A stretch of DNA of 38,145 nt from the IMG/VR virus record IMGVR_UViG_3300036798_000409, positions 1 through 38,145 of that record; one strand, written 5' to 3'. The notes under the pieces were generated by a model. It was not told the DNA's origin, did no database searches, and was given only the letters and a program-made list of their open reading frames with translations. Source of the DNA: a virus. Its lineage: Duplodnaviria > Caudoviricetes. The position numbers and the translations under genes are program-made. This document shows, piece by piece, positions 8,951 through 37,870 of this stretch; the stretch's first letter is position 1, and the number at the start of each line of letters is the position of its first letter.

Positions 8951-10314
8951 CAGCCGAAGGTCCCTGTGTTGGAGGCGCTGCTTTCGATTCGGGCCATGAA
9001 CTGGTTGTTAAGCAAAACCCAGCCCTCGAAATACTTGTAACCGATCACCCGCAATTGGTTGAGAGGATCAGACTTATCTGCCTCGAACAACCGCGTCCAG
9101 GTCAGCTCTTCGAGCTTCAGCGCGGCGAATGCTCGCTGCCCGAAGACGAAGGTCGGGAACACCGTCACGCCGGTTGCGGGGGCCGCGGGCGGCACCTGGA
9201 AGAGACCGACGCCGGTCAGCAGGACCGTGGTCGACGGCGGCAGTAGGATCGCTTGACCTGCGTAGGGGCCGACGGTCGGGGCCGCGCTGGAGTTGGTCGT
9301 CGCCAGGTTGATGATCGTGGTCGTGGCGCTGATGCCGCTGGAGATGTAGACGGCATAGGTGAACCCGGTCGTCGACGGCGTGGTGACCGAGATCCCGCCG
9401 TTGGGGCCGGTTACGGAGACGCTCGCCGATACTTGGGTGATGCGGCTCTCGTAAAAATTCTGCGTATCCCAGCCGGTCACCTGAACGTAATAGGTGCCGG
9501 TCGCCAGCGCGCCGCCGGTCGTGCCCGTTCCGGTGACAGCGGCGACTCCGACGAAGCTCGGGATCAGGTTACTTTCGCAGAAGTGCATTCCGCGCCAGTA
9601 ACCCGTCTCGTTGATGTAGAGCCGGGTGATGTCCGAGTACGACCACGCGGTGACGACCGTCGGGTTGTTCGCAAAGTCGTTGAGCACGAGCGGCGAGGCG
9701 ACGGCCATGTAATGTTCGTGCGTCCGCGGGCTCTTCGTCTCGCCGCCCTTGACGTTGTACGAAATGCTGCGCTGCACCGTCTCGCCGGTCTGGCCCGACC
9801 ACATCGGCGCACCGAGCTGCTTTAGGTTCGCGACCGTGCGGTTCACAGTGAACGGGTCGAGCACGTCGCCGGCCAGGACGTTGGCGCGCGAGCCGCGCTG
9901 CGCCACGTAATTGACCTGCGTACCCGCCATCAGCGCGTTGAAGCCGTTGCGTTCGCGGAGCTCGGCCACTTGCATGCCGAGCCGCTCGGTCGCCTCGTGC
10001 AGCAAATCGTGTTGGATCGTGATCGTGGCGACGTCGGTAAACGTCACTTTGTCGCCCCACTGGAGCGCGACGCCCGTCACCTGACTGATCGTCAGCGTCT
10101 CGCCGATCGGCGGCACGCCCTCGGAGAGCGGAGCGGTCGGCAGCGGGAAGCGGTTGAACCGGGTCGCCGTCCACGACGTGCCCATGTGCTTGGGCATCGT
10201 CTTCTTGTCGGCGAATTGGTAAACGACCAGAAATCGCTGGGCGACCTCCAACGTCTCCTTGTCGAGAATGCGCTGGACGTCTGCTTGGAATTGGCCGGAT
10301 GAATTGGTCGCCAT
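8950..10314 (-). CDS. Major capsid protein (N4-gp56-like) with inserted Ig/Fn3-like domain
   Basis: FADKKTMPKHMG, PLSEGVPP, QWGDKVTFTD and C-terminal DKSDPLNQ...IGYK motifs; follows portal and scaffold. Confidence 0.85.
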   Translation of the reverse strand: MATNSSGQFQADVQRILDKETLEVAQRFLVVYQFADKKTMPKHMGTSWTATRFNRFPLPTAPLSEGVPPIGETLTISQVTGVALQWGDKVTFTDVATITIQHDLLHEATERLGMQVAELRERNGFNALMAGTQVNYVAQRGSRANVLAGDVLDPFTVNRTVANLKQLGAPMWSGQTGETVQRSISYNVKGGETKSPRTHEHYMAVASPLVLNDFANNPTVVTAWSYSDITRLYINETGYWRGMHFCESNLIPSFVGVAAVTGTGTTGGALATGTYYVQVTGWDTQNFYESRITQVSASVSVTGPNGGISVTTPSTTGFTYAVYISSGISATTTIINLATTNSSAAPTVGPYAGQAILLPPSTTVLLTGVGLFQVPPAAPATGVTVFPTFVFGQRAFAALKLEELTWTRLFEADKSDPLNQLRVIGYKYFEGWVLLNNQFMARIESSASNTGTFG

Positions 10315-16420: not shown

Positions 16421-17103
16421 GCGCTCGGAGGGCGTCCGTTCCGGTTGATCCCCGGATAGTCCGCTCGCCGTCTCGACCTCCGGCAAAGGTTTTGACGCCC
16501 TCCGCTTTCAACCGGAGGGGTCGGGAGGTCGCCTTGCCAGACAACCAATCAATCCGTTCAAGGCGTTGCCGCCAGAAAAAGCTTTCGTTGCGCAACGATT
16601 TCGATCGTAGGTTATTGATAGTAGAGCAGGAAATGCTGTCGTTGCGCAACGAAATCGCAACGTTGCGCAACATCCCCCCACACCCCCCTTCTCTAAAGAA
16701 TCCTTCGGATAAGTTATGTAAGAACCCCTCTCCTCCTTCGGAGGAGATCCCCCAGACCGCAAACGGAGCTTTGCATGCGAAACGAGGACAAAGACTTTCG
16801 CCCGATTGGTACCCTTCTCTCGGAAGCCGTAGCTTCGCTGAAGGACTCGGGCTCGACCCCGACGCAACATTCGACCAATTCCGCGACTACTGGACGTCCC
16901 GAGCAGCCGGCGGAACCAAGCTCGATTGGGAAGCTACCTTCCGTGTTTGGTGTCGACACGAAGCCCAACGGGCCAAACCGAACGGCCACGGGAAATTCTC
17001 TGCAGTCGACAAGCTCCACATCGGCGCTCGCCTTGCGGCAGAGTCATTCGAGGCAAAGAGGCGAGCTCGTGAGCAGGCTGCTGAGCCACTTCTGGACGAG
17101 TGA
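16417..17103 (+). CDS. Replication initiator-like protein with DnaT-like C-terminal domain
   Basis: PPHPPSLKN linker; RGQRLSPDWYP...FDQFRDYW...KLDWEATFRVW motif; internal DNA repeats. Confidence 0.7.
   Translation: MSARRASVPVDPRIVRSPSRPPAKVLTPSAFNRRGREVALPDNQSIRSRRCRQKKLSLRNDFDRRLLIVEQEMLSLRNEIATLRNIPPHPPSLKNPSDKLCKNPSPPSEEIPQTANGALHAKRGQRLSPDWYPSLGSRSFAEGLGLDPDATFDQFRDYWTSRAAGGTKLDWEATFRVWCRHEAQRAKPNGHGKFSAVDKLHIGARLAAESFEAKRRAREQAAEPLLDE
16585..16671. repeat. Three palindromic iteron-like repeats (candidate origin)
   Basis: TCGTTGCGCAACGA at 16585-16598 and 16639-16652; CGTTGCGCAAC at 16661-16671; AT-richer spacer between them. Confidence 0.65.
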
Positions 17104-17380
17104 CGACCATCCCACGAGCCGGCAAGCACAGATCGAGGATTGGCTTGAAGACCTCGACGATTACACCCCGCAGCAAGTAGAGGACGCTTGCCGGAAATGG
17201 CGCCGCTCTTCCTCGCGGCGACCGACGCCGCATGACATTCGCAAACTCATCGGAGCTGACGATATGGAGCATTTGCCGACCGATTGGTTGCCATCTGATG
17301 AGTGCCAATCCTATTATCGATCATGCGCCGATCGGTATCGGCTGAAAGGCAAGGTATGCTCAGATCGGTGTCGGACATGA
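17069..17380 (+). CDS. Helicase loader/inhibitor-like protein (G39P or lambda P N-terminal type)
   Basis: WLEDLDDYTPQQVEDACRKW...PTPHDIRK pattern right after the initiator; GTG 17069 with GAGG (the track extends the frame to 16775). Confidence 0.55.
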   Translation: MSRLLSHFWTSDDHPTSRQAQIEDWLEDLDDYTPQQVEDACRKWRRSSSRRPTPHDIRKLIGADDMEHLPTDWLPSDECQSYYRSCADRYRLKGKVCSDRCRT

Positions 17381-20543: not shown

Positions 20544-20620
20544 GTCGCGGTGGAGCAGCTTGGTAGCTCGCCAGGCTCATAACCTGGAGGTCGGCGGTTC
20601 GAATCCGCCCCGCGCCCCCA
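20544..20620 (+). tRNA. tRNA with CAT anticodon, initiator-like body, atypical acceptor stem
   Basis: D arm TGGAGCAGCTTGGTAGCTCG, anticodon arm CCAGG-CTCATAA-CCTGG, T arm GGCGG-TTCGAAT-CCGCC, encoded CCA. Confidence 0.9.
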
Positions 20621-20987: not shown

Positions 20988-21304
20988 CCGGGCAAGTTTG
21001 CGCCCAGCCGTTCACGCTGACGGCACATGTTGGCCCCTCGCCGGACGGGACTTACATCTGTCAGCCCAACGGGACGCTGACGATCGCCTCCGGCACGGTA
21101 TCGTGGGGAGCTCCGACGACGGCCACGTCTGCTGGCATTTACCTGAACGGCGCGGCCCTGGACGGTGGTTTGGGCAGCCAGCTGGTGGTGCAGAATGGGG
21201 GCCAGCTGTACACTCTGGGAACAGACCATAATTGGTATGTTTTCGGGTCCGGCGGCCATTGGGTGCTTGGCACTCCGAGCCCGGTTCCCCCCGCTTGCCC
21301 ATAA
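20984..21304 (+). CDS. Tag-bearing beta-domain protein (one SPDG domain)
   Basis: ATGA-coupled; starts MTGQVCAQPFTLTAHVG; 106 aa. Confidence 0.7.
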   Translation: MTGQVCAQPFTLTAHVGPSPDGTYICQPNGTLTIASGTVSWGAPTTATSAGIYLNGAALDGGLGSQLVVQNGGQLYTLGTDHNWYVFGSGGHWVLGTPSPVPPACP

Positions 21305-21471
21305 TCACCGCAACGCCGTTCACGCTCACGGCGCAGATCGATGTGGTGGAAGAGGCGCCGATAGCGCTTCTCGGGCTTGGCTGCGGAATCTGGGTAGCGC
21401 AGAAGATCGAGGAGAACCCGATTGTTCCACGTCGGCGGCTTCTCGGTCTTGAATCGAAGGACGACCCATGA
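21295..21471 (+). CDS. Tag-bearing small protein with hydrophobic segment
   Basis: IITATPFTLTAQI...IALLGLGCGIWVA...NPIVPRRRLLGL; start TTG 21295 or ATA 21301; stop overlaps the next ATG. Confidence 0.55.
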   Translation: MPIITATPFTLTAQIDVVEEAPIALLGLGCGIWVAQKIEENPIVPRRRLLGLESKDDP

Positions 21472-24119
21472 CCATTCTCACCGCGACGCCGTTCGTTGTA
21501 ACGGCGCAGATCGGCATGAGCTCATCTTCGACTCCGGGGTCGCCGTGGCCGATAGGTGTGCCGCCAAACACCCCCGACAGCTTAGTCCAACACACGAGTC
21601 ACGAGGTGTGGAATCAGCCGAGCGCGGGCTACTACGCCAGCGGCGGCCAGGTGATTTTCAATGCCGGCCAGAACGCTGTGATGAGCGGCCAGGTCACCAT
21701 AAACGCGGCTCATTGGAGCTACGGCGGCGGCATAGCACCAGTCGACAACCTCCAAGGCTACTGGCTCATGGATGGGGCGCCGTTTTCTCCGTTGATGACC
21801 GGCCAATCGACGGACGGAGGATCTTTCGCCTACACCTTCGACACGTCGCTGTATCCTGATGGCCCTCATGTATTCACCTTCCAGGTTGTCAATTCCGAGG
21901 TGATTTCTCTCGGACACTACGCAACGAGGGCGATATACATTGTATTTGCCAATCACGGAGCAGCCCCCGACGCTCCGGTGAGGGTGCCGCTGGCGAACTC
22001 GTGGATGGAAGGAGTCCCGAGCGTTCCTGATTGGCACACGTTCACATCCAAGATCCTGCCGCAACACGTCAACGCCGCGATCCCATTTACGCCGGTTTTC
22101 TGTCCCCCGGACCCGGTGAATGGTGCCACGTTGGGCGAATTGGTCATCGAGCCGTTGCGCGGCGCGCCAGGGGCAGGCCCCGGCCGAACGCACGGCCCAC
22201 GCTGGACGATGGGCGACACCGGCGTCGGCTTGTTGCCGGAGGGCGACCTATATTCAGGCAACATCTCTTTGGATGCCGATGGCTATAATTTCAACACCGT
22301 CATGCTCGAGCTCGGGCGCGACGGGGATCGCTTCAACGCTCAGATCTCCGCGCTGACCACCTATGTCGACACCCTCGACGGCACGGGCTGGTGGGGCGTC
22401 AGCATGGACGGCCGCCTGTTCAAGCGCACCTTCGATGGTCACGTCACGACCGTCGCCGGCCGAATATTGGCGCCGAACACCTTTGCTTGGGACCCCCAGG
22501 CCTATCCCTATCTGTCCGAGACTCAAAACTCGGACGCCAGGCTGAACGGGCGCGCGCAATTCATCGGCGATTTCTCCGCTACTCCCGGTGGCAACATGGG
22601 CGGGTGGTGGCTCAAGAATGCCGTCGATCTCTGCGTCGACCCGCGAAACCACGCGATCGTTTACCTCTCGCTCCAGGTGCCGAGCGTCATCGTCAAGGTC
22701 GACACCTCGGTGAGCCCGGCGAGAGTGACGCTCTATGCCGGCACGCTTCAGACCAACCTCGACAACAAGGGAGGCGTGGGCTACGTGGATGGCCCGGCGC
22801 TCTCAGCTCAATTCAGCGAGCAGGCCGGGATCTGCATGCTGTCCGACGGCAGGATGATCGTCGCGGACAGCAACAACGCCGCGATCCGCATGGTTTCGGC
22901 CGATGGATCAACGGTCTCGACCGTCGCAGGCGGGACGGCCAGCTCGCAACCGGCGCCGCCGAGCAGCGACAATCCGCCGACCCGCTCCCCGACCGGCACC
23001 GTCCCTGTGGCGTCCAATTTTGTCGCCTACCCGTATTGGGTCAGGCTGACCTCGCACGGCACGATAGTCCTGATCGAGCAGTACAGCCTGCAGGTTCGCG
23101 AGCTCGACCTCGCGGCGAGAACGCTGCGCTACATCGGCACATTTGGCGACACGCCCGCAAACTCGAACAGCGGGTTTTGGGCTGCGTTGGAGGTCGATAG
23201 CACGGCCACGAACGGCCCCGTGGATCGCATCTATCTGGCCGTGACGGCCGGCGACGTTCCGATGTGGCGTATGGATCTCTCTGGCGCGAACAGCCAGGGA
23301 TGGTTTGGCATCGGCGCGACTGGTCTGTTGAGCGCGTGCGCCGATCGGTCATACACGCCAAACGGTTATTTCCCGTGGATGTTTGCTGTGCACCGGACCC
23401 AGTGCCGGGCGATCGCGACTTGGATCGACGTGGGAACGGTAGAATATCGTGGGCAACCGTATACGCACGACCCTATAGGCGACAACAATAATGCTCAGTA
23501 CGAGATTTGGTGCGCGGGTTATTACGTCTTCATCCTCGGCACCGCCCAATGTTTCCCCTACGGCGCGCGGCCCAGCTTCCTGGCGCTCTACGGCAGCACC
23601 GGGGTAAGCTACCTTGGCCTTTCGGCCACCAACAACTCATTCGAGGAGATCGCCCAGCTCACCCAGGCTGAGCGGTATGCCTTCTACCAGGCGGGGATGA
23701 TCGGCTCGACGCCGCGTCCCGAGCTCACCGGCAACGACCTGCGCAACCTCGACTTCTATGTGATGCGCAACACGTACGCCGGCTCACAGCCCACCCCGTT
23801 CACCCCCGGCCCCGACGATCCTGATACAGGAAACTATCCTCAGCTCTTCGGTGTTGCCGGCACCCGTCTCTCGGCGACGTCGGTGCAGGTTACCTGGACC
23901 ACCGACAAGCCCACGATCGGCCTGGCTGCGGCCACGCCACAAAACGTCACGACCCAAGCGTGGGCCTACGGGCCGTGCAGCCCACTCGAGACGGCGTACG
24001 GGACCAACCACAGCGTCGTGATCTCTGGCCTGCCGCCAAATGTTCAGATCAACGTCACTGCTATGTCGAAGGATGTGGCGGGGAACAGCTCGTACTCTTC
24101 GAATGTCGCCATCCCATGA
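21468..24119 (+). CDS. Large adhesin-like protein: tag, Ig-like domain, NHL-repeat propeller, Fn3-like C-terminus
   Basis: FDTSLYPDGPHVFTF (Ig-like); GYVDGPALSAQF...MIVADSNNAAIRMV...VSTVAGG (NHL); VQVTWTTDKP...HSVVISGL...SKDVAGN (Fn3-like). Confidence 0.8.
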   Translation: MTILTATPFVVTAQIGMSSSSTPGSPWPIGVPPNTPDSLVQHTSHEVWNQPSAGYYASGGQVIFNAGQNAVMSGQVTINAAHWSYGGGIAPVDNLQGYWLMDGAPFSPLMTGQSTDGGSFAYTFDTSLYPDGPHVFTFQVVNSEVISLGHYATRAIYIVFANHGAAPDAPVRVPLANSWMEGVPSVPDWHTFTSKILPQHVNAAIPFTPVFCPPDPVNGATLGELVIEPLRGAPGAGPGRTHGPRWTMGDTGVGLLPEGDLYSGNISLDADGYNFNTVMLELGRDGDRFNAQISALTTYVDTLDGTGWWGVSMDGRLFKRTFDGHVTTVAGRILAPNTFAWDPQAYPYLSETQNSDARLNGRAQFIGDFSATPGGNMGGWWLKNAVDLCVDPRNHAIVYLSLQVPSVIVKVDTSVSPARVTLYAGTLQTNLDNKGGVGYVDGPALSAQFSEQAGICMLSDGRMIVADSNNAAIRMVSADGSTVSTVAGGTASSQPAPPSSDNPPTRSPTGTVPVASNFVAYPYWVRLTSHGTIVLIEQYSLQVRELDLAARTLRYIGTFGDTPANSNSGFWAALEVDSTATNGPVDRIYLAVTAGDVPMWRMDLSGANSQGWFGIGATGLLSACADRSYTPNGYFPWMFAVHRTQCRAIATWIDVGTVEYRGQPYTHDPIGDNNNAQYEIWCAGYYVFILGTAQCFPYGARPSFLALYGSTGVSYLGLSATNNSFEEIAQLTQAERYAFYQAGMIGSTPRPELTGNDLRNLDFYVMRNTYAGSQPTPFTPGPDDPDTGNYPQLFGVAGTRLSATSVQVTWTTDKPTIGLAAATPQNVTTQAWAYGPCSPLETAYGTNHSVVISGLPPNVQINVTAMSKDVAGNSSYSSNVAIP

Positions 24120-25126
24120 TCATCACGGCGACGCCTTTCACTGTGACGGCGCAGATCGGTTCTTCGGGTATCTCTCCGGACGGCTCTTCGCTATTCTTTC
24201 CATCAACGGACGTCCTGACAAACAAGCAAGGGACATGGTCGGTCGGCGATGTCTATGCGGAGGACGACGGAGCTGGTCACGCAGTTTTTCGCATAAAGCT
24301 CAACGGCCGATATGTTGCGGAGATCCAAAACGTACCAGGCGCTGGGTTGGATTTTGGAGTCGTTGCGGTTTCTAGTCTGTGGGTAGACAACGGCGGGTGG
24401 GTTTACGCTTTTGTCAGTGGCGACAACGGCTATGCGATGTACGTCAATGCCGGCTGGGTCGCGAGCGGCGACACGTCCGGTAGGGCGGCGCCCGCAGCCG
24501 GGTATATGCTCTCGCACTTTGCGCCGCCGTACACGAGCTCACCCGATGGCACCAGGATCACGGCCCCCGCCACGAATACGGTGACGAACCAGGACGGCGT
24601 GTGGGGGATCACCAATGGCGTCCTCACCCTGAACGGCGTCGGGATCGTCGACAACCGCGGTGGCAACAACGACAGCTATCCACCGAATGCCTTCCAGGCT
24701 TTGGCGATCGAGATCAACAGTCACGGAACGGCGTTTGTGCAGGCGTCGGACTCGACGTGGCGCAGCTTCGCCGGTTTGGCGGCCAACCCCTCGGCCGGAC
24801 CTACCGCATCCCCGGTCCCCGTGAGCATGACGATCACGCCGCTCAATGGGCAACTCATACCGACCGCGCCCCCGGGGTCTCCGCGGGGAACGAAAGTGGC
24901 AACGCTGACCGTCACGATGAGCGACGGCTCAGTCGTCACTCCGACGACGGCCGAGGTAGCTTTGGTAGCCGACCAAGGGTACCCCGGCGGCCTCGCTTTT
25001 GAATATGTTTCGCCAAATATTCAAAGCAACGGCGTTCCGTTGACGCCAGGCTATGACACATTTCTCGTGCAAGTGACAATAAATGGCACCTCGTTCTGTC
25101 TAGGAACGCTTGTGGGAACCAGCTAA
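24116..25126 (+). CDS. Tag-bearing protein with two SPDG domains and C-terminal cadherin-like domain
   Basis: ATGA-coupled at 24116; MIITATPFTVTAQIG; PRGTKVATLTVTMSDGS; 336 aa. Confidence 0.75.
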   Translation: MIITATPFTVTAQIGSSGISPDGSSLFFPSTDVLTNKQGTWSVGDVYAEDDGAGHAVFRIKLNGRYVAEIQNVPGAGLDFGVVAVSSLWVDNGGWVYAFVSGDNGYAMYVNAGWVASGDTSGRAAPAAGYMLSHFAPPYTSSPDGTRITAPATNTVTNQDGVWGITNGVLTLNGVGIVDNRGGNNDSYPPNAFQALAIEINSHGTAFVQASDSTWRSFAGLAANPSAGPTASPVPVSMTITPLNGQLIPTAPPGSPRGTKVATLTVTMSDGSVVTPTTAEVALVADQGYPGGLAFEYVSPNIQSNGVPLTPGYDTFLVQVTINGTSFCLGTLVGTS

Positions 25127-25534
25127 CTCCGAGACCGTGATGACGAGCTTGGGCTGCTTGCCGTAGACTTTGCGGGGCCGCTTGTATTCGACCACTTGGG
25201 CGTCGTCCAGCCAGACCACGCCCTTTAGTGCGTCTTTGGCCTGCTTGATGTAGTTGTCGAGGTCCGGCTTGCTGGTCGGCCGGATTAGGCCGAGGATTGC
25301 GGCGTTTTTCTTTTTCATCGACCACGAAGCTGGGATTTTGCGCTCCGCGAGGAGCTCCATGACGAGCGCACCCTCGAACGGCTCGCGACCCGACATTTCC
25401 TGCTGGGCGATCAGCCGCAGTGCCGCATGCTCGTTTTTCTGCTTCGACGGCGTGTAGCGGCGCCCTGCTTTGGTTTGCCGATGTGCGAACGGCACAGGCT
25501 CGCCGAGCAGCACGATCGTAACCGGGTCGGTCAT
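25100..25534 (-). CDS. rusA: RusA-family Holliday junction resolvase
   Basis: AGGAGAG SD before ATG 25534; GEPVP, KPDLDNYIKQAKDALKGVVWLDDAQVV motifs. Confidence 0.9.
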   Translation of the reverse strand: MTDPVTIVLLGEPVPFAHRQTKAGRRYTPSKQKNEHAALRLIAQQEMSGREPFEGALVMELLAERKIPASWSMKKKNAAILGLIRPTSKPDLDNYIKQAKDALKGVVWLDDAQVVEYKRPRKVYGKQPKLVITVSELAGSHKRS

Positions 25535-25715
25535 TGTCTCTCCTGGTCTCCCCGCTCGTCGGACCGCGGCGCGGGGAGTGCGTAGCGCGGCCGCGGTACA
25601 CGCCTGCTTTGCACATAGCACAGCGGCGGTAAAATGCACCCGCGACACCCTGTCGCATGGGCAATGGGTGCCGATCGGGAGTATATTGCGATCATACCAA
25701 GCGAAGGAGCTGGAT

Positions 25716-26033
25716 ATGGACAAGTGGCAAGCCCAACAAATCAACGAGTTTATCCGTCGGAATCCGGACGCCCGCGAGGCGGCCGAGCGCAAGCTGCTAG
25801 CGATCACTTCCCCATTCGGGGCCTCATTGAAGCGAGCTGACGCGTTCGAGCATTTCCTTTCTTCGCCAGATCTTCCCCAGCCTTGTGCTGGGGCCTCATT
25901 GAAGCACGTCTGCCCGCACGGCACGCAGCTCGACCTGCAGGATTGCATGCAATGCGCGGACGAGGCCGAGCTCGCGGATCTGTTGCCGCACAGCACGCTG
26001 ACGGCGCGGCTGCGCGCGGGGATGAAGCCATAA
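25716..26033 (+). CDS. Hypothetical protein containing the CRISPR-like unit
   Basis: AAGGAG SD; 105 aa; CPHG...CxxC; TAATG-coupled to the next ORF. Confidence 0.55.
   Translation: MDKWQAQQINEFIRRNPDAREAAERKLLAITSPFGASLKRADAFEHFLSSPDLPQPCAGASLKHVCPHGTQLDLQDCMQCADEAELADLLPHSTLTARLRAGMKP
25805..25905 (+). CRISPR. Mini-array: shortened repeat, 36-nt spacer, full 36-nt type I-G-like repeat
   Basis: R1 CACTTCCCC-ATTC-GGGGCCTCATTGAAGC (25805-25833); spacer 25834-25869; R2 ATCTTCCCCAGC-CTTGT-GCTGGGGCCTCATTGAAGC (25870-25905). Confidence 0.75.
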
Positions 26034-26122
26034 TGACAACATTTGGCTGGATACTTGCGGTTATTACCGTATCCGGTATAGCTCTGTCTATCGTTGGCCT
26101 AATTTATACATTGGTGCGCTGA
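26033..26122 (+). CDS. Small single-pass membrane protein
   Basis: MTTFGWILAVITVSGIALSIVGLIYTLVR; coupled at both ends; AT-richer. Confidence 0.55.
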   Translation: MTTFGWILAVITVSGIALSIVGLIYTLVR

Positions 26123-27001
26123 ATGATCATCCGCGAGACCGCCTCCGCCTACCATGCCCGCGAGGCGGTCTCGGCCGGTTTCGCATGGGACGTCGTGTCG
26201 AGTTGCCCTGCGCAGGCCTACTATAACTCCGTATTTCATCCCGACCATGTCGCCATCCAAGCCCGCAAGGAGGCGAAGCGGCACAGCAACGAGCTCGATG
26301 TCGGCACGGCGGCGCACCTCGCGGTCCTGGAGAGCCACGTCTTCGCGGAGCGGTGCAGCTTGGTCCCTTACTCGGATTGGCGCACCCAGGACTCGCGCAA
26401 CATCCGCGATCAATGCGTGATCGACGGCAGGGTGCCGCTGCTCGCCAAGGATTACGAGCTCGTGACGAAGCTGCGACTCTCGATCGAGAACAGCGACGCG
26501 GCCGAGTATTTCTTCGGCGAGGGCGAGAGCGAGGTCAGCTTCACGTGGGAAGACAACGGGATCGCCTGCAAGGCCCGCGCCGACCGCATCGTGCCCGGCG
26601 CGATCGTCGACCTGAAGACCGCCATCAGCGCGAGCCCGCAGGCGTTCCAGCGCGCGATGGTGCGCTACGGGCACCATCTGCGGGCGGCGTGGTATCTCGA
26701 TGGCTGGCGAGAGGGCAGCGACCCATCGCCGCATGTCTATGAGGTGTTGAAAGACATGCGGTATCTCTACGTCGTGGTCGCGAAGACCGAGCCGCACCTG
26801 GTCTCGATCAACCGCCTCGACGAACGCGCGCTCGAATGGGGCTGGATGCTTTGCCGCAAGGCCCTGTCCGAGATCAGGCGAGCCTGGGAGACCGGAGTGT
26901 GGTCAGGGTACAGCCTGGAGGGCGATAAGATCAACACCGTGTCGCTCCCGGCTTTCGCCGAGCACCAGCTCGCGGACATGGAGGCCAACGATGAGATTTG
27001 A
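26123..27001 (+). CDS. RecE/exonuclease VIII-like PD-(D/E)XK nuclease
   Basis: YHA...GTAAHLAVLE, ESEVSFTW, CKARAD, IVDLKT, F...YGHHLRAAWY motifs. Confidence 0.85.
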   Translation: MIIRETASAYHAREAVSAGFAWDVVSSCPAQAYYNSVFHPDHVAIQARKEAKRHSNELDVGTAAHLAVLESHVFAERCSLVPYSDWRTQDSRNIRDQCVIDGRVPLLAKDYELVTKLRLSIENSDAAEYFFGEGESEVSFTWEDNGIACKARADRIVPGAIVDLKTAISASPQAFQRAMVRYGHHLRAAWYLDGWREGSDPSPHVYEVLKDMRYLYVVVAKTEPHLVSINRLDERALEWGWMLCRKALSEIRRAWETGVWSGYSLEGDKINTVSLPAFAEHQLADMEANDEI

Positions 27002-27173
27002 TCTTGCGCCGCATCAGGTGTTGTTGGTCCGCCACGCGATCTTGGCGATGCACGCCAGCATCAAGCTTTGCCTGCACAATACCAACATGCCCCCGGCCAC
27101 GGAGCACGCCTGCGAGTTCACATGCGAGCAACTCGAAGAGGTGATCGCGATATTCTCGGAGAAGCCGGAATGA
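26991..27173 (+). CDS. Hypothetical protein
   Basis: GGAGG SD; 60 aa; ATGA-coupled to the ERF gene. Confidence 0.55.
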   Translation: MRFDLAPHQVLLVRHAILAMHASIKLCLHNTNMPPATEHACEFTCEQLEEVIAIFSEKPE

Positions 27174-27991
27174 CCCATGATCTCGACACCGGAGAAATCA
27201 CCTACACGCTCTACCGCCGAAGCGCCGATCTCGGTGCCCTCTTTGCCGCGCTTGCGAAAGCCCAAGCCTCGTTCGCTAGTGCCTCACGGGATGCCGAAAA
27301 CGAAGGCTTCAAGCGCGGCGGCAAGGCGAGCCGCTATGCGACTTTGGAGTCCGTGATCGAGGCCACCAAGATGGGGCTTGCGGAGAACGGGCTGGCGTTG
27401 CTGCAAATGCCCGGCAATCAGGGAACGAGCATCACGGTAACGACAATCCTCGGGCACGGCGAATCCGGGCAGTGGGTCGAGAGCACCTTTGCCGTCGCCC
27501 CATCTCGGTTTGATGCGCAGGGCGCGGGGTCTGTTATCACCTATCTGCGCCGTTACTCACGCATGGCCGTCTGCGGCATCGCGCCCGAGGATGACGACGG
27601 CAACGCGGCCTCGATCGAAGCGCCGCAGAAGCTTGGCCGGCCGCCGCCACGCCGCGCAGGGCCGTTCTCCAAAACGTACCCGGCCGAGCAGGGGTTTGTC
27701 ACAGAGCCGGTTCCCGCCAATAGGGAAAATCCTGTATTGGCCGAGTCTCCTACGGTCGTACCTAACGCCACACTGACGACTCGCGCATGGGGAGCTGCGC
27801 GCGATGGTTTGTGGTCGCTCCAGAGTTTTTGCGAATCGCTAACCCGCACCGAGCGAGCGAGCATCAAGCGGCTGGTGGTCGACGAGCTGCAGCCGTTCGC
27901 GCGTCGGGCGGACGAGGATAGAGTTGCAGACGAGCAACGCGACAGGCTCGACGAGCTGACCGAACGCAAACCGGAGGAGATTCCGCTATGA
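27170..27991 (+). CDS. erf: ERF-family ssDNA annealing protein
   Basis: LFAALAKAQ, YATLESV, ESGQW, QGAGSVITYLRRYS...GIAPEDDDGNAA. Confidence 0.9.
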   Translation: MTHDLDTGEITYTLYRRSADLGALFAALAKAQASFASASRDAENEGFKRGGKASRYATLESVIEATKMGLAENGLALLQMPGNQGTSITVTTILGHGESGQWVESTFAVAPSRFDAQGAGSVITYLRRYSRMAVCGIAPEDDDGNAASIEAPQKLGRPPPRRAGPFSKTYPAEQGFVTEPVPANRENPVLAESPTVVPNATLTTRAWGAARDGLWSLQSFCESLTRTERASIKRLVVDELQPFARRADEDRVADEQRDRLDELTERKPEEIPL

Positions 27992-28464
27992 CCGATCTCG
28001 ACGAGCTGCTTGCCAAGCTGAAAGCGGACGTGGCAGCGAAACATGCGCAGGCTGATATCTTGATGCGCGAGGCCGACCTTGTCGCCGCCCGCATCCAGGG
28101 CGTCGAGGAGGCCCGCGCGGCGATGGTGCTTGCCGAGGGAGACGCTGCGCTTCGAGACATAGATGCGCGCGCCGAGCGGCTTAGGAATCGCAAGCCGCGG
28201 CGCGACATCCGGGCGCTCGTGAAGGCTACGGTCGAGAAAAAAGGCTTGTGCTCCGCCGCAACACTTGAAGAGCAAGCTACCGAGATTGCCGAAGAGATTG
28301 GCTGCCGCAAGTCGCAGGTCGAGGCCGCGCTGCGGGCGATGTCAGTAGTCAAGCCCGATGGCGAATCCGTGAGCCTGCAGCTGGGGGAGCTGCCGCGCGA
28401 GCCTCTTCCCGATGTCGTTTCGGTAGAAGGGGCTCGCCGGCATGCTGATCTTGCGGAGGGTTGA
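27988..28464 (+). CDS. Hypothetical coiled-coil protein
   Basis: GGAGGAG SD, ATGA-coupled; 3' end overlaps the PurD-like gene by about 120 nt. Confidence 0.65.
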   Translation: MTDLDELLAKLKADVAAKHAQADILMREADLVAARIQGVEEARAAMVLAEGDAALRDIDARAERLRNRKPRRDIRALVKATVEKKGLCSAATLEEQATEIAEEIGCRKSQVEAALRAMSVVKPDGESVSLQLGELPREPLPDVVSVEGARRHADLAEG

Positions 28465-29622
28465 GTATGCACTTCTTGCTGCAAGCCGCACTGTGGCGCC
28501 TGTTCCCACGCCTATGCCAACGTATCCTCCGGCAGAGGCCAGAGGGGAGTTTTCGCCCGCCTGACACTCGCACGGGTGGAATCCCTCCGTTTCCCCCCAT
28601 AGGGGCACCCCGACAATCTCCTCGTAATCCCGTGGCGGATGAGGGTACGGCGGTATGGCAAGAACTACTCCCACCGCAACCTCATTCATCGTATGGGCCG
28701 CACGCGTCCACTCTCCGGAGGCCAGAGCATGAAGAAACTCGATAGGATCGCAGGCGAAAAGATCGGTCTCGATGTTGAAGGCAGGCCAGCCGAGCCGCAT
28801 GGTCCACTCAAGGGGCCACGGGTGTCCGCTGTCGTCGATGATGCAGTTGACGTCGACGTTGCCGACATAACCGAGCGCCTCAAGCTGCTCTGCGCACGGT
28901 ACAAGGACTTTCTCCGCGAGTTTGCTACGGCGAACATACCGCATGACTGTGCCCGCTTCGCCGCAGTTCTGGCCCAAATCACCCGCAAAGAGCTTCTTAA
29001 ACTCGAAATTCTCCTCGAAGCCCTCCGCGAAGCCGGCAGGGCCGAACCACCCGCCGGCGGCGAACTCAATCCCCTCGATCGCCTCTTGCAATAGGAACGG
29101 ACACGGAGGGCGGCCATGTTTTTTCTTCCACTTCCGAAGCATGAAGGTGGGATCTTCCTCGACGCCCGTCTTTGCGCTCAAGCTTTTGTCCGCAGTATCC
29201 GAGCATGGCTTAGAATAGAAGGGTTCTCCTCGACGCTCGACGAACTTAATTGCCTCGGTGTAATCGTTGAACTCGCGGAAGGGAGGCGCGGGGATGCCGG
29301 CCTTCTTAAAGACCTGCATTCCCTTGGTGCGGTCGAGCTCCCACGCGGCGCTCTCGGGCGTGCCGCCGATGACGAGCATCCCTTCAGCCTGCCACCGGGC
29401 AGCTTCAGTGAGGTAGGCCCCATTGGCCTCAAGGATGATGATGTCAGCCCACCGAAGCCAGGGATGGAAGTCTGGCACAAGATCAACCAGGCCCTTGCCG
29501 ATTGGCCGAGACCGCGCGTCGTACTTACGGACGAAGAACTTGACCTGATGGCCGGCCTTCTCCGACCGGAGAGCAAGGTCTAAGAGTCCGTCCCCGGCGT
29601 CACAAATTAGGAGAACACGAAT
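28342..29622 (-). CDS. PurD-like ATP-grasp ligase (probable ATT start)
   Basis: WELDR..G, FLLQEAIEGIE, GDLGQNCGEAG (cf. PurD GDTGPNTGGMG), PLEWTMRLGWP. Frame extends 48 codons upstream of the tracked GTG to ATT-CGT-GTT-CTC. Confidence 0.85.
   Translation of the reverse strand: MRVLLICDAGDGLLDLALRSEKAGHQVKFFVRKYDARSRPIGKGLVDLVPDFHPWLRWADIIILEANGAYLTEAARWQAEGMLVIGGTPESAAWELDRTKGMQVFKKAGIPAPPFREFNDYTEAIKFVERRGEPFYSKPCSDTADKSLSAKTGVEEDPTFMLRKWKKKHGRPPCPFLLQEAIEGIEFAAGGWFGPAGFAEGFEENFEFKKLFAGDLGQNCGEAGTVMRYVRRSKLAEKVLVPCAEQLEALGYVGNVDVNCIIDDSGHPWPLEWTMRLGWPAFNIETDLFACDPIEFLHALASGEWTRAAHTMNEVAVGVVLAIPPYPHPPRDYEEIVGVPLWGETEGFHPCECQAGENSPLASAGGYVGIGVGTGATVRLAARSAYSTLRKISMPASPFYRNDIGKRLARQLPQLQAHGFAIGLDY
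28467..28745 (+). CDS. Candidate antisense-overprinted ORF 1
   Basis: GGAGGG-N6-ATG, two nt after the previous stop. Confidence 0.35.
   Translation: MHFLLQAALWRLFPRLCQRILRQRPEGSFRPPDTRTGGIPPFPPIGAPRQSPRNPVADEGTAVWQELLPPQPHSSYGPHASTLRRPEHEETR
28729..29094 (+). CDS. Candidate antisense-overprinted ORF 2
   Basis: GGAGG-N7-ATG overlapping the end of ORF 1. Confidence 0.35.
   Translation: MKKLDRIAGEKIGLDVEGRPAEPHGPLKGPRVSAVVDDAVDVDVADITERLKLLCARYKDFLREFATANIPHDCARFAAVLAQITRKELLKLEILLEALREAGRAEPPAGGELNPLDRLLQ
29116..29583 (+). CDS. Candidate antisense-overprinted ORF 3
   Basis: GGAGGG-N5-ATG, 21 nt after the ORF 2 stop. Confidence 0.35.
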   Translation: MFFLPLPKHEGGIFLDARLCAQAFVRSIRAWLRIEGFSSTLDELNCLGVIVELAEGRRGDAGLLKDLHSLGAVELPRGALGRAADDEHPFSLPPGSFSEVGPIGLKDDDVSPPKPGMEVWHKINQALADWPRPRVVLTDEELDLMAGLLRPESKV

Positions 29623-37190: not shown

Positions 37191-37332
37191 CGTGCGCCTT
37201 CACCTTCATGCTAACCTCGCCCGTCTCCTCATCGGCAGAGATGATCTCGCCGGGGACTGATGCGCCGTTGTAGAGGCTCACAACCTCCCACTTCGCCTTT
37301 TCTTCAGCGGAATGCTGCGAGGTGATCTTCAT
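37111..37332 (-). CDS. Hypothetical protein
   Basis: 73 aa, ATGA-coupled, GGAG SD. Confidence 0.6.
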   Translation of the reverse strand: MKITSQHSAEEKAKWEVVSLYNGASVPGEIISADEETGEVSMKVKAHDGTAADRTYSFGAYGIKLVARSRYRT

Positions 37333-37688
37333 GATTGTCTCCGTTGACGGGGGTCATGCAAATGCGGCTCGATCGCCGCCCACTCAGGCTGGAGGCAATA
37401 GACTTTATCTTCTCTAGGCGGTCCGAGGTTGGAGACGATGCGCCAACCCGTGGTCGCCAGCTTTTCCCTTATGTGATAGATGCGGACGGCCAAGTTCACA
37501 TCTAACGGAGAGCTCGGAGCTCTTCCCCAGATCAGATCCCACAACCGGGCCGAAGCGACCGGCTTGCCCCTATGCTTCCATAGATGCTCAAGCAGCCGCC
37601 ACTCCGTCATAGAAAGCCGCACCAGCGCGCCGTCGCGCCGGATAAGACAATGGCTGGTCACGTCGAAGGGAGGCGTCTCGTCTCTCAT
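37329..37688 (-). CDS. Stand-alone OmpR/PhoB-type winged-helix DNA-binding protein
   Basis: ATG 37688 (ATGA); VRLSMTEWRLLEHL...LWDLIWG...LAVRIYHIREKL; no receiver domain. Confidence 0.8.
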   Translation of the reverse strand: MRDETPPFDVTSHCLIRRDGALVRLSMTEWRLLEHLWKHRGKPVASARLWDLIWGRAPSSPLDVNLAVRIYHIREKLATTGWRIVSNLGPPREDKVYCLQPEWAAIEPHLHDPRQRRQS

Positions 37689-37870
37689 GGCGGTGGTGGC
37701 GCTAGACGGCCCTGCACGCCGCGTGCTGCCGCGATGAGCCCTCCGACGCATACCACACTGACCTGATAGGTATTCGGCAGCGTTGTGCCGCCAAGCGCCG
37801 TGTACGCCGTCCCTGCCGTAATCACGAAGTCGACCACCGCCGAGATACCGAGGGCCACCCACTTATTCAT
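37685..37870 (-). CDS. Holin-like small membrane protein
   Basis: MNKWVALGISAVVDFVITAG...VVCVGGLIAAA, two hydrophobic segments, 61 aa; GTAGGA upstream. Confidence 0.5.
   Translation of the reverse strand: MNKWVALGISAVVDFVITAGTAYTALGGTTLPNTYQVSVVCVGGLIAAARGVQGRLAPPPP

Follow-up and report, generated by a model that had tools for sequence, protein, structure and literature searches.

CRISPR mini-arrays have been described in the viruses SPV1 and SPV2 (Medvedeva et al. 2019, PMC6858448; PMC11656645; PMC7099407), and the phage locus reported here resembles them, as far as the available parts of these papers go. It has one spacer and no cas genes, its repeat is an array repeat of the same community, its spacer matches co-occurring DNA, it has no evident host-type leader, and recombination is the likely route of capture. 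It differs in that the phage unit lies inside a conserved reading frame, is of type I-G and has a first repeat that is partial and apparently hybrid, and in that its candidate target is not established as a closely related virus. When the two repeats are compared with those of the host, as is done for mini-arrays, the second (R2) equals an array repeat from the soil sequencing run that we call run X1, and the first (R1) equals it in the last 16 nt only.

For type I-G itself, the best point of comparison is the system of Thioalkalivibrio sulfidiphilus (bioRxiv 10.1101/2022.08.08.503147; CRISPR-DR16). According to the available part of that account, its repeats are 36 nt long with a 7-bp stem, Csb2 cuts 4 nt below the stem to give an 8-nt handle, the PAM is TTN, and cutting by Csb2 is demonstrated only on a 7-bp stem. 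The phage unit is alike in its 36-nt repeat, 7-bp stem, 8-nt ATTGAAGC handle and, at the candidate target, a TTN PAM. It differs in the lack of cas genes and in an R1 stem of only 4 bp.

Solitary repeat units, or RNA anti-CRISPRs (PMC10651486, available text), are like the phage unit in being phage-borne mimics of a host repeat without cas genes. Here, by contrast, there are two repeats and a full spacer that has a PAM-flanked match, and the unit is intragenic, whereas that search covered intergenic sequence only. A solitary repeat is defined as single, intergenic and with no partial repeat within 100 bp; the phage carries two repeats 72 nt apart within an open reading frame. CreA/CreR and phage Cracr (PMC10120712; bioRxiv 10.1101/2024.10.29.618823, both in their available parts) likewise have a two-repeat unit with one degenerate repeat. 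The phage unit departs from them in its full-length spacer, which has a near-complete match to foreign DNA and no seed match to a cas promoter in the loci tested.

We consider it reasonably probable that the locus is a cas-less, single-spacer type I-G mini-array, a host unit captured by recombination, which yields one crRNA from a gene's mRNA against a co-occurring element. Virus mini-arrays are already published; judged by sequence, the variation here would lie in the type I-G repeat, the in-frame position and the hybrid first repeat. No type I-G phage mini-array and no in-frame one is described in the literature searched, which consisted mostly of open-access main texts (supplements, for example Table S10 of PMC10120712, may list type I-G cases).

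The repeat unit and the gene that contains it

The window, by which we mean the whole stretch of DNA analyzed, is an entire linear virus record of 38,145 nt. A scan of 52 ORFs gave matches to terminase, major head/capsid protein, tail fibre, endolysin, RusA, exonuclease VIII and Erf. No cas genes were found among these 52 ORFs of a contig that is ~88% complete, and ten type I-G Cas queries gave a best E of 0.015 on the window versus values down to 1e-104 on a control locus (L011). These results agree with the sequence-only reading, which had described the array as cas-less.

That reading had also reported two copies of a 16-mer exactly 72 nt apart around a 36-nt spacer, and this anatomy held up. 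The 16-mer, GGGGCCTCATTGAAGC, begins at 25818 and again at 25890. The short first repeat, R1 (25803..25833, + strand), shares its 3' 16 nt (25818-25833) with R2 and carries the 8-nt handle at 25826-25833. It is followed by the spacer (25834..25869, +), which is identical to the one quoted earlier, and then by R2 (25870..25905, +), the full 36-nt type I-G repeat. Relative to R2, R1 has two extra bases at its 5' end, and its 5' part corresponds to codons 30-34 of ORF 25716-26033.

Folding bore out the two hairpins that had been proposed. In R2, a stem of 7 bp closes a 5-nt loop (-13.1 kcal/mol, z -1.93), a fold equalled by 11 of 200 shuffles. R1 forms a 4-bp CCCC/GGGG stem (25810-25821) with a 4-nt loop ahead of its 8-nt handle; its folding energy of -7.2 kcal/mol (z -0.37) is unremarkable on energy alone. 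The pattern TTCCCC..GGGGCC occurs at just two sites in the whole window, 25808 in R1 and 25873 in R2, and of 300 Markov-resampled windows, one contained an exact repeat of at least 16 nt within 120 nt. The 5' arm of the R1 hairpin uses uncommon codons (ACT, TCC and CCA, which make up 6.7%, 14% and 11.7% of the codons for their amino acids) in a comparison that was chosen after the fact. A second phage with the repeat-spacer unit was not found in the collections searched, which leaves a single occurrence. An IMG/VR contig (L026) that seemed to carry a second short repeat of the R1 type was rejected as a chance match within an unrelated gene.

The sequence-only reading was right about the repeats and missed their setting: the entire R1-spacer-R2 unit is embedded, in frame, in a conserved gene of 105 codons (25716..26033, +). 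The encoded protein has a helical N-terminus, a variable linker with the array inside it and a conserved CxH...CxxC C-terminal module. This module is common to its 17 short homologues (two long, weak matches, P0008 and P0009, are left out of all homologue counts). The protein has no Pfam, PHROG or PADLOC match, its AlphaFold model is of low confidence (pLDDT 64.7, pTM 0.28), and the ESM Atlas returned only unnamed clusters, under 0.9. P0002-P0020 are small proteins of an unnamed family in which the CxH...CxxC module is conserved and the N-terminus varies; P0004 carries the module twice.

A Shine-Dalgarno-like GAAGGAG (25703..25709, +) stands 6 nt before the ATG of the gene. Two sigma-70-like promoter candidates lie further upstream (25608..25635 and 25658..25687, both +); they are defined by consensus match only, with 9 of 12 positions matching and two sites observed against 0.3 expected in shuffles. 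The repeat unit is on the + strand downstream of both, and its orientation agrees with that of the ORF. On the upstream side, the gene for the RusA Holliday junction resolvase (25100..25534, -; PF05866, E 2.4e-26) is divergent from the array gene. Downstream follow a 29-codon ORF (26033..26122, +) whose ATG overlaps the array-gene stop codon (TAATG), an exonuclease VIII/DUF3799 gene (26123..27001, +; phrog_412, E 9.6e-60; PF12684) and a gene for an Erf single-strand annealing protein (27170..27991, +; phrog_2324, E 2e-33; PF04404).

Several features elsewhere in the window deserve mention in their own right. A phage tRNA-Met gene (CAT anticodon) occupies 20544-20620 (+); an attP suspected at 20577-20611 was rejected, because that sequence belongs to the full tRNA. 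A 45-nt sequence is present in three copies that are 73-80% alike (21296-21340, 21469-21513 and 24114-24158), two of them at the starts of long + strand ORFs (21468-24119 and 24116-25126), and the copies are possible swap points for adsorption genes. At 16573-16657, a 31-nt sequence occurs twice at a distance of 54 nt, and both copies contain an identical 14-nt palindrome; they may be replication origin iterons or operators. The - strand of this 38-kb phage carries a phosphoribosylglycinamide synthetase-like ATP-grasp gene (28342-29478; GARS_A, GARS_C) and an ORF with an OmpR-type Trans_reg_C DNA-binding domain (37329-37862).

R2 among bacterial type I-G repeats

R2 has type I-G geometry, with a stem of ~7 bp and an 8-nt ATTGAAGC-type handle 4 nt below it. 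It matches Rfam family CRISPR-DR16 with 28.6 bits (E 3.3e-4), under the gathering score of 35. A motif based on R2 retrieved 20 bacterial contigs in GTDB genomes and one IMG/VR contig, and type I-G cas genes lie within the fetched stretch at 11 of these 21 loci, where relatives of R2 adjoin csb2, cas7g, cas8g, cas3g and cas4g/1g (NCBIfam names). R2 equals the dominant repeats of the host loci at 28-32 of 35-36 positions; an exact copy was found at none of the GTDB-motif loci examined. The host-locus repeats are 36-37 nt long and have the same ends as R2, which is not independent evidence because the search motif fixed those ends. Judged by these comparisons, R2 is a real type I-G repeat, as had been claimed from its ends. 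Of the outcomes that the sequence-only reading had named as speaking against its interpretation, two were looked for, dissimilarity of R2 to I-G arrays and conservation of the repeat peptide among homologues. Neither was seen: R2 does resemble real I-G arrays, and ASLK is absent from all 17 homologous proteins.

Among the 20 GTDB contigs, 16 are titled Alphaproteobacteria or members of that class (Elioraea, Roseomonas, Rhodovarius, Azospirillum). Since R2-like repeats sit mostly in Alphaproteobacteria, the phage host is likely alphaproteobacterial. Host prediction from the terminase and exonuclease genes gave distant matches only, and none of 314 host spacers matched the window at up to 9 mismatches.

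The fetched loci also yielded observations on type I-G repeats at large. In locus L011, from an alphaproteobacterial MAG, the stretch immediately before cas7g (75-281) carries several type I-G repeats that are degenerate and separated by very short spacers, an arrangement that looks like a CreR-type regulatory unit. In an Acetobacteraceae MAG (L017), the 13 kb fetched contain a two-repeat type I-G unit (10000-10110) and no cas gene. In the type I-G array of Azospirillum soli (L009, 10000-12500), stem sequences vary strongly and pairing is kept. The end of the IMG/VR contig (L001, 1501-1917) has six type I-G repeats adjoining phage-like genes, which are either phage-borne or part of a host array that borders a prophage.

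An array repeat and a candidate target in run X1

Run X1, one public soil run and possibly the window's own source, was the only run found with this phage region, and all the evidence for a target and for an array with the identical repeat comes from it. It was available as assembled contigs only, and seven of these aligned on 25500-26250, two of them being the phage itself. In record 4 (102 nt, depth 24.7), an exact R2 is followed by another spacer, also of 36 nt, and by a further repeat with a single difference, which gives the same 72-nt period. The phage spacer has the same length as this array spacer, and its 72-nt period falls within the host range of 70-79. Record 5 resembles R2, with three differences; record 6 carries a relative, of P0007 type, of the array-bearing gene; and record 7 corresponds to the beginning of the exonuclease gene. 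Record 4 bears directly on the idea that the two copies are a chance duplication of coding sequence, unrelated to CRISPR. That both copies share a reading frame, and that R2 scores under the Rfam gathering threshold, would fit such a duplication. The exact R2 in an array contig refutes it unless the contig is an artefact, and close repeats beside I-G cas genes, together with the absence of ASLK from 17 of 17 homologues, leave it a negligible probability.

Record 3 (456 nt, depth 4.3) contains spacer positions 3-32 exactly, a 30-nt match at the contig end. Before the exact match, position 1 matches, position 2, in the seed, is a mismatch, and TTC stands at -3 to -1. Thus 31 of 32 visible positions match; the contig ends inside the spacer, with positions 33-36 and the 3' flank beyond it. 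The register of the unaligned letters of record 3 was validated with record 6, whose own unaligned letters translate to the residues preceding His-Gly in P0007. We estimate the chance of a 30-nt match in 3.8 Gb at below 1e-8, and that of a TTN at this place at 1 in 16. The remaining 426 nt of record 3 gave no alignment to 25500-26250 at 80%. Phage contig depths on both sides (10.8, 9.6 and 10.7) are not raised along the 12 kb downstream, as a contribution of the 4.3x record-3 molecule would require; this even depth argues that the molecule does not share most of that stretch. Record 4 and the phage contig both contain all of R2, and yet the contig breaks at the spacer. Taken on the alignment, record 3 is a candidate protospacer with a TTC PAM on foreign DNA, whether phage, plasmid or chromosome; it may also be a sibling phage that shares the spacer and R2. 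By the rules of type I-E, the seed mismatch at position 2 could block interference.

The match backs competition between elements, one of the functions first suggested for the unit. The spacer search proposed along with that suggestion succeeded with record 3 and came back empty in the phage and metagenome collections and host genomes. In INPHARED phages the best E was 0.4 and no match covered 80% of the spacer; a degenerate codon motif of the spacer had no match in IMG/VR; and 0 of 5 host genomes contained the spacer with up to 3 mismatches. One IMG/VR match to an 18-mer of the spacer was put down to chance, and three matches of ~21-23 nt to a 20-mer in JGI metagenome contigs lay in unrelated genes and were rejected. 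A protein search with residues 25-64 of the array gene found only itself. No host spacer against the phage was among the run X1 matches listed over 20 kb.

Because no cas genes were detected and the guide matches different DNA flanked by TTC, the phage likely borrows host CRISPR machinery. In the mini-array reading, an early mRNA from an upstream promoter would double as pre-crRNA. Host Csb2 would cut 4 nt below each hairpin, before 25826 and before 25898, and release a 72-nt crRNA (25826..25897, +) that is predicted from Csb2 cut geometry to consist of the 8-nt handle, the 36-nt spacer and a 28-nt 3' hairpin part; when folded, this predicted RNA retains the R2 hairpin. The crRNA would steer host type I-G Cascade-Cas3 to interference with, or priming against, the record-3 element. 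The phage's own copy of the spacer would be spared, because its flank is the repeat (AGC) rather than TTN. The 4-bp hairpin of R1, which has no inner stem, counts against this guide function.

Were R1 left uncut, R2 could act as a solitary repeat, and the repeats might then mainly soak up Csb2 and Cas7 during infection, with the spacer incidental. A Racr-like decoy of this kind would suit the early-region position and the lack of cas genes, and solitary repeats do inhibit cognate systems (PMC10651486, available text). We regard it as improbable in view of the two repeats and the normal-length spacer with a PAM-flanked match. SRUFinder, moreover, classes a full repeat with a near-identical partial one within 100 bp as a mini-array (same source and extent), and general annotation of the window, made without an Acr library, identified no anti-CRISPR neighbour.

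A regulatory role could take two forms, silencing of a promoter by partial pairing, as in CreR or Cracr, or cutting of the mRNA by Csb2 as a sensor that tunes exonuclease VIII and Erf. Phage regulatory mini-arrays exist (PMC10120712; bioRxiv 10.1101/2024.10.29.618823, available parts), and cutting would sever the ORF message upstream of the recombination genes. CreA/CreR-like silencing, which had been offered as an option from the sequence, found no backing: a TTN followed by a 9-of-10 seed match was present neither in the window nor in 25 fetched loci (312 kb in all), among which the cas promoter of the true host is not included. The best self-match, at 17253, was rejected, since 64 of 500 shuffled spacers reach it and its flank is TCG, not TTN. 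Spacers of type I-F Cracr are shortened (bioRxiv 10.1101/2024.10.29.618823, available part), whereas the phage spacer has its full 36 nt. Regulation in either form appears very improbable.

Origin of the unit and of its first repeat

The repeat peptide ASLK occurs in 0 of 17 homologues. The 5' half of R1 encodes I-T-S-P-F-G-A, and the motif S-P-[F/C]-G is kept in five homologues, from four clusters, that do not have the repeat peptide. After this motif, the linker measures 30 residues in the phage gene, 34 in P0002, and 4, 9 and 9 in short alleles; subtracting one 24-codon unit from the phage linker leaves 6 residues. GC3 is 0.52 in the insert versus 0.76 and 0.90 in its flanks. The absence of ASLK, the short linkers of other alleles and the lower GC3 suggest that the spacer and R2 are a lineage-specific insert, and that the 5' half of R1 is older.

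The sequence-only reading had taken R1 for a repeat trimmed in this phage. Since five homologues without the repeat peptide keep the peptide of its 5' half, R1 is probably instead a hybrid of an older repeat-like site in the gene and the end of a host repeat. The case rests on peptides because no DNA of homologous genes was found in IMG/VR, JGI metagenomes, INPHARED or genomes of two orders (0/244 and 0/401), and the ancestral R1 site may be either a fossil repeat or a lucky coding sequence. The uncommon codons of the R1 5' arm lean towards a repeat origin or selection. In frame, a P0007-type linker is alike to the 3' 16-mer of the repeat at 10 of 16 positions by hand count, a weak likeness and a lead only.

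Integration by Cas1-Cas2 would yield two equal repeats. We envisage that the variable linker of the gene already contained a repeat-like site and that a repeat and spacer from a host array recombined into it, with the crossover falling in the 3' end that the two repeats have in common; the neighbouring exonuclease VIII/Erf pair is a plausible agent. The outcome would be an R1 that keeps the gene's own 5' part and an R2 that is the full host repeat. Erf/Exo pairs recombine 78%-identical DNA (PMC3945230), and recombination with host arrays is a proposed route for leaderless phage mini-arrays (PMC6858448, PMC7099407), according to the available parts of these papers.

Recombination could also have left a mere scar, a piece of a host array acquired for example in repair after CRISPR attack and tolerated in frame within a hypervariable linker, with R1 unprocessed and no function as a guide. 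Of 311 host repeat-spacer units, 107, or a third, would likewise stay in frame and open by chance, so the in-frame position is weak evidence of selection. Given the recent look of R2 and the spacer, selection need not have played a part, and in homologues this linker accommodates unrelated inserts of 4-34 residues. The adjacent recombination genes and the single occurrence of the unit, with no second phage, are what a scar would predict as well. We nevertheless find a scar unlikely: the handle of R1 is complete, the 5' arm of its hairpin depends on three uncommon codons, the orientation is right for transcription, and the spacer has its PAM-flanked match in run X1.

When the spacer is read in the frame of the gene, it has 5 of 12 residues in common, in register, with the insert that P0002 carries at this point (permutation p 7e-4 in register and 0.02 at any offset). 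This likeness may be coincidental, may stem from an earlier spacer derived from the same target, or may mean that the guide is aimed at a linker segment of relatives. The last of these would make the unit part of a conflict between alleles, by homing or by cut-and-rescue, in which cutting plus Erf recombination spreads or protects the array allele. Relatives do co-occur in run X1, where record 6 is a P0007-type allele, and adjacent genes in related viruses are frequent targets of published mini-arrays (PMC7099407, available part). However, record 3 has no DNA likeness at 80% to the conserved 5' part of the gene, so homing arms are not evident. The P0002 segment is too diverged to be the present target and the short alleles have no such segment, which makes a conflict of this kind quite improbable. 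A broader proposal, which we put forward tentatively and with considerable doubt, is that the S-P-[F/C]-G motif is a fossil type I-G repeat preserved as coding sequence, a reusable landing pad into which Erf recombination swaps fresh host repeat-spacer units. One mRNA would then give both a protein and a renewable guide against the equivalent segment of rival phages, a protein-free allele-conflict element powered by host Cas proteins.

The mini-array reading remains the one we favor, and a single sample here links a phage mini-array, an array with an identical repeat and a PAM-flanked candidate type I-G target. The locus is a plausible snapshot of the birth of a mini-array by recombination into a repeat-like coding site. 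It also indicates that mini-arrays can hide inside genes, outside the scope of the published search for intergenic repeats (PMC10651486, as its available text describes it). R1, with its 4-bp stem, is a natural probe of how small a hairpin Csb2 will still cut, which would be useful for the design of compact type I-G guides.
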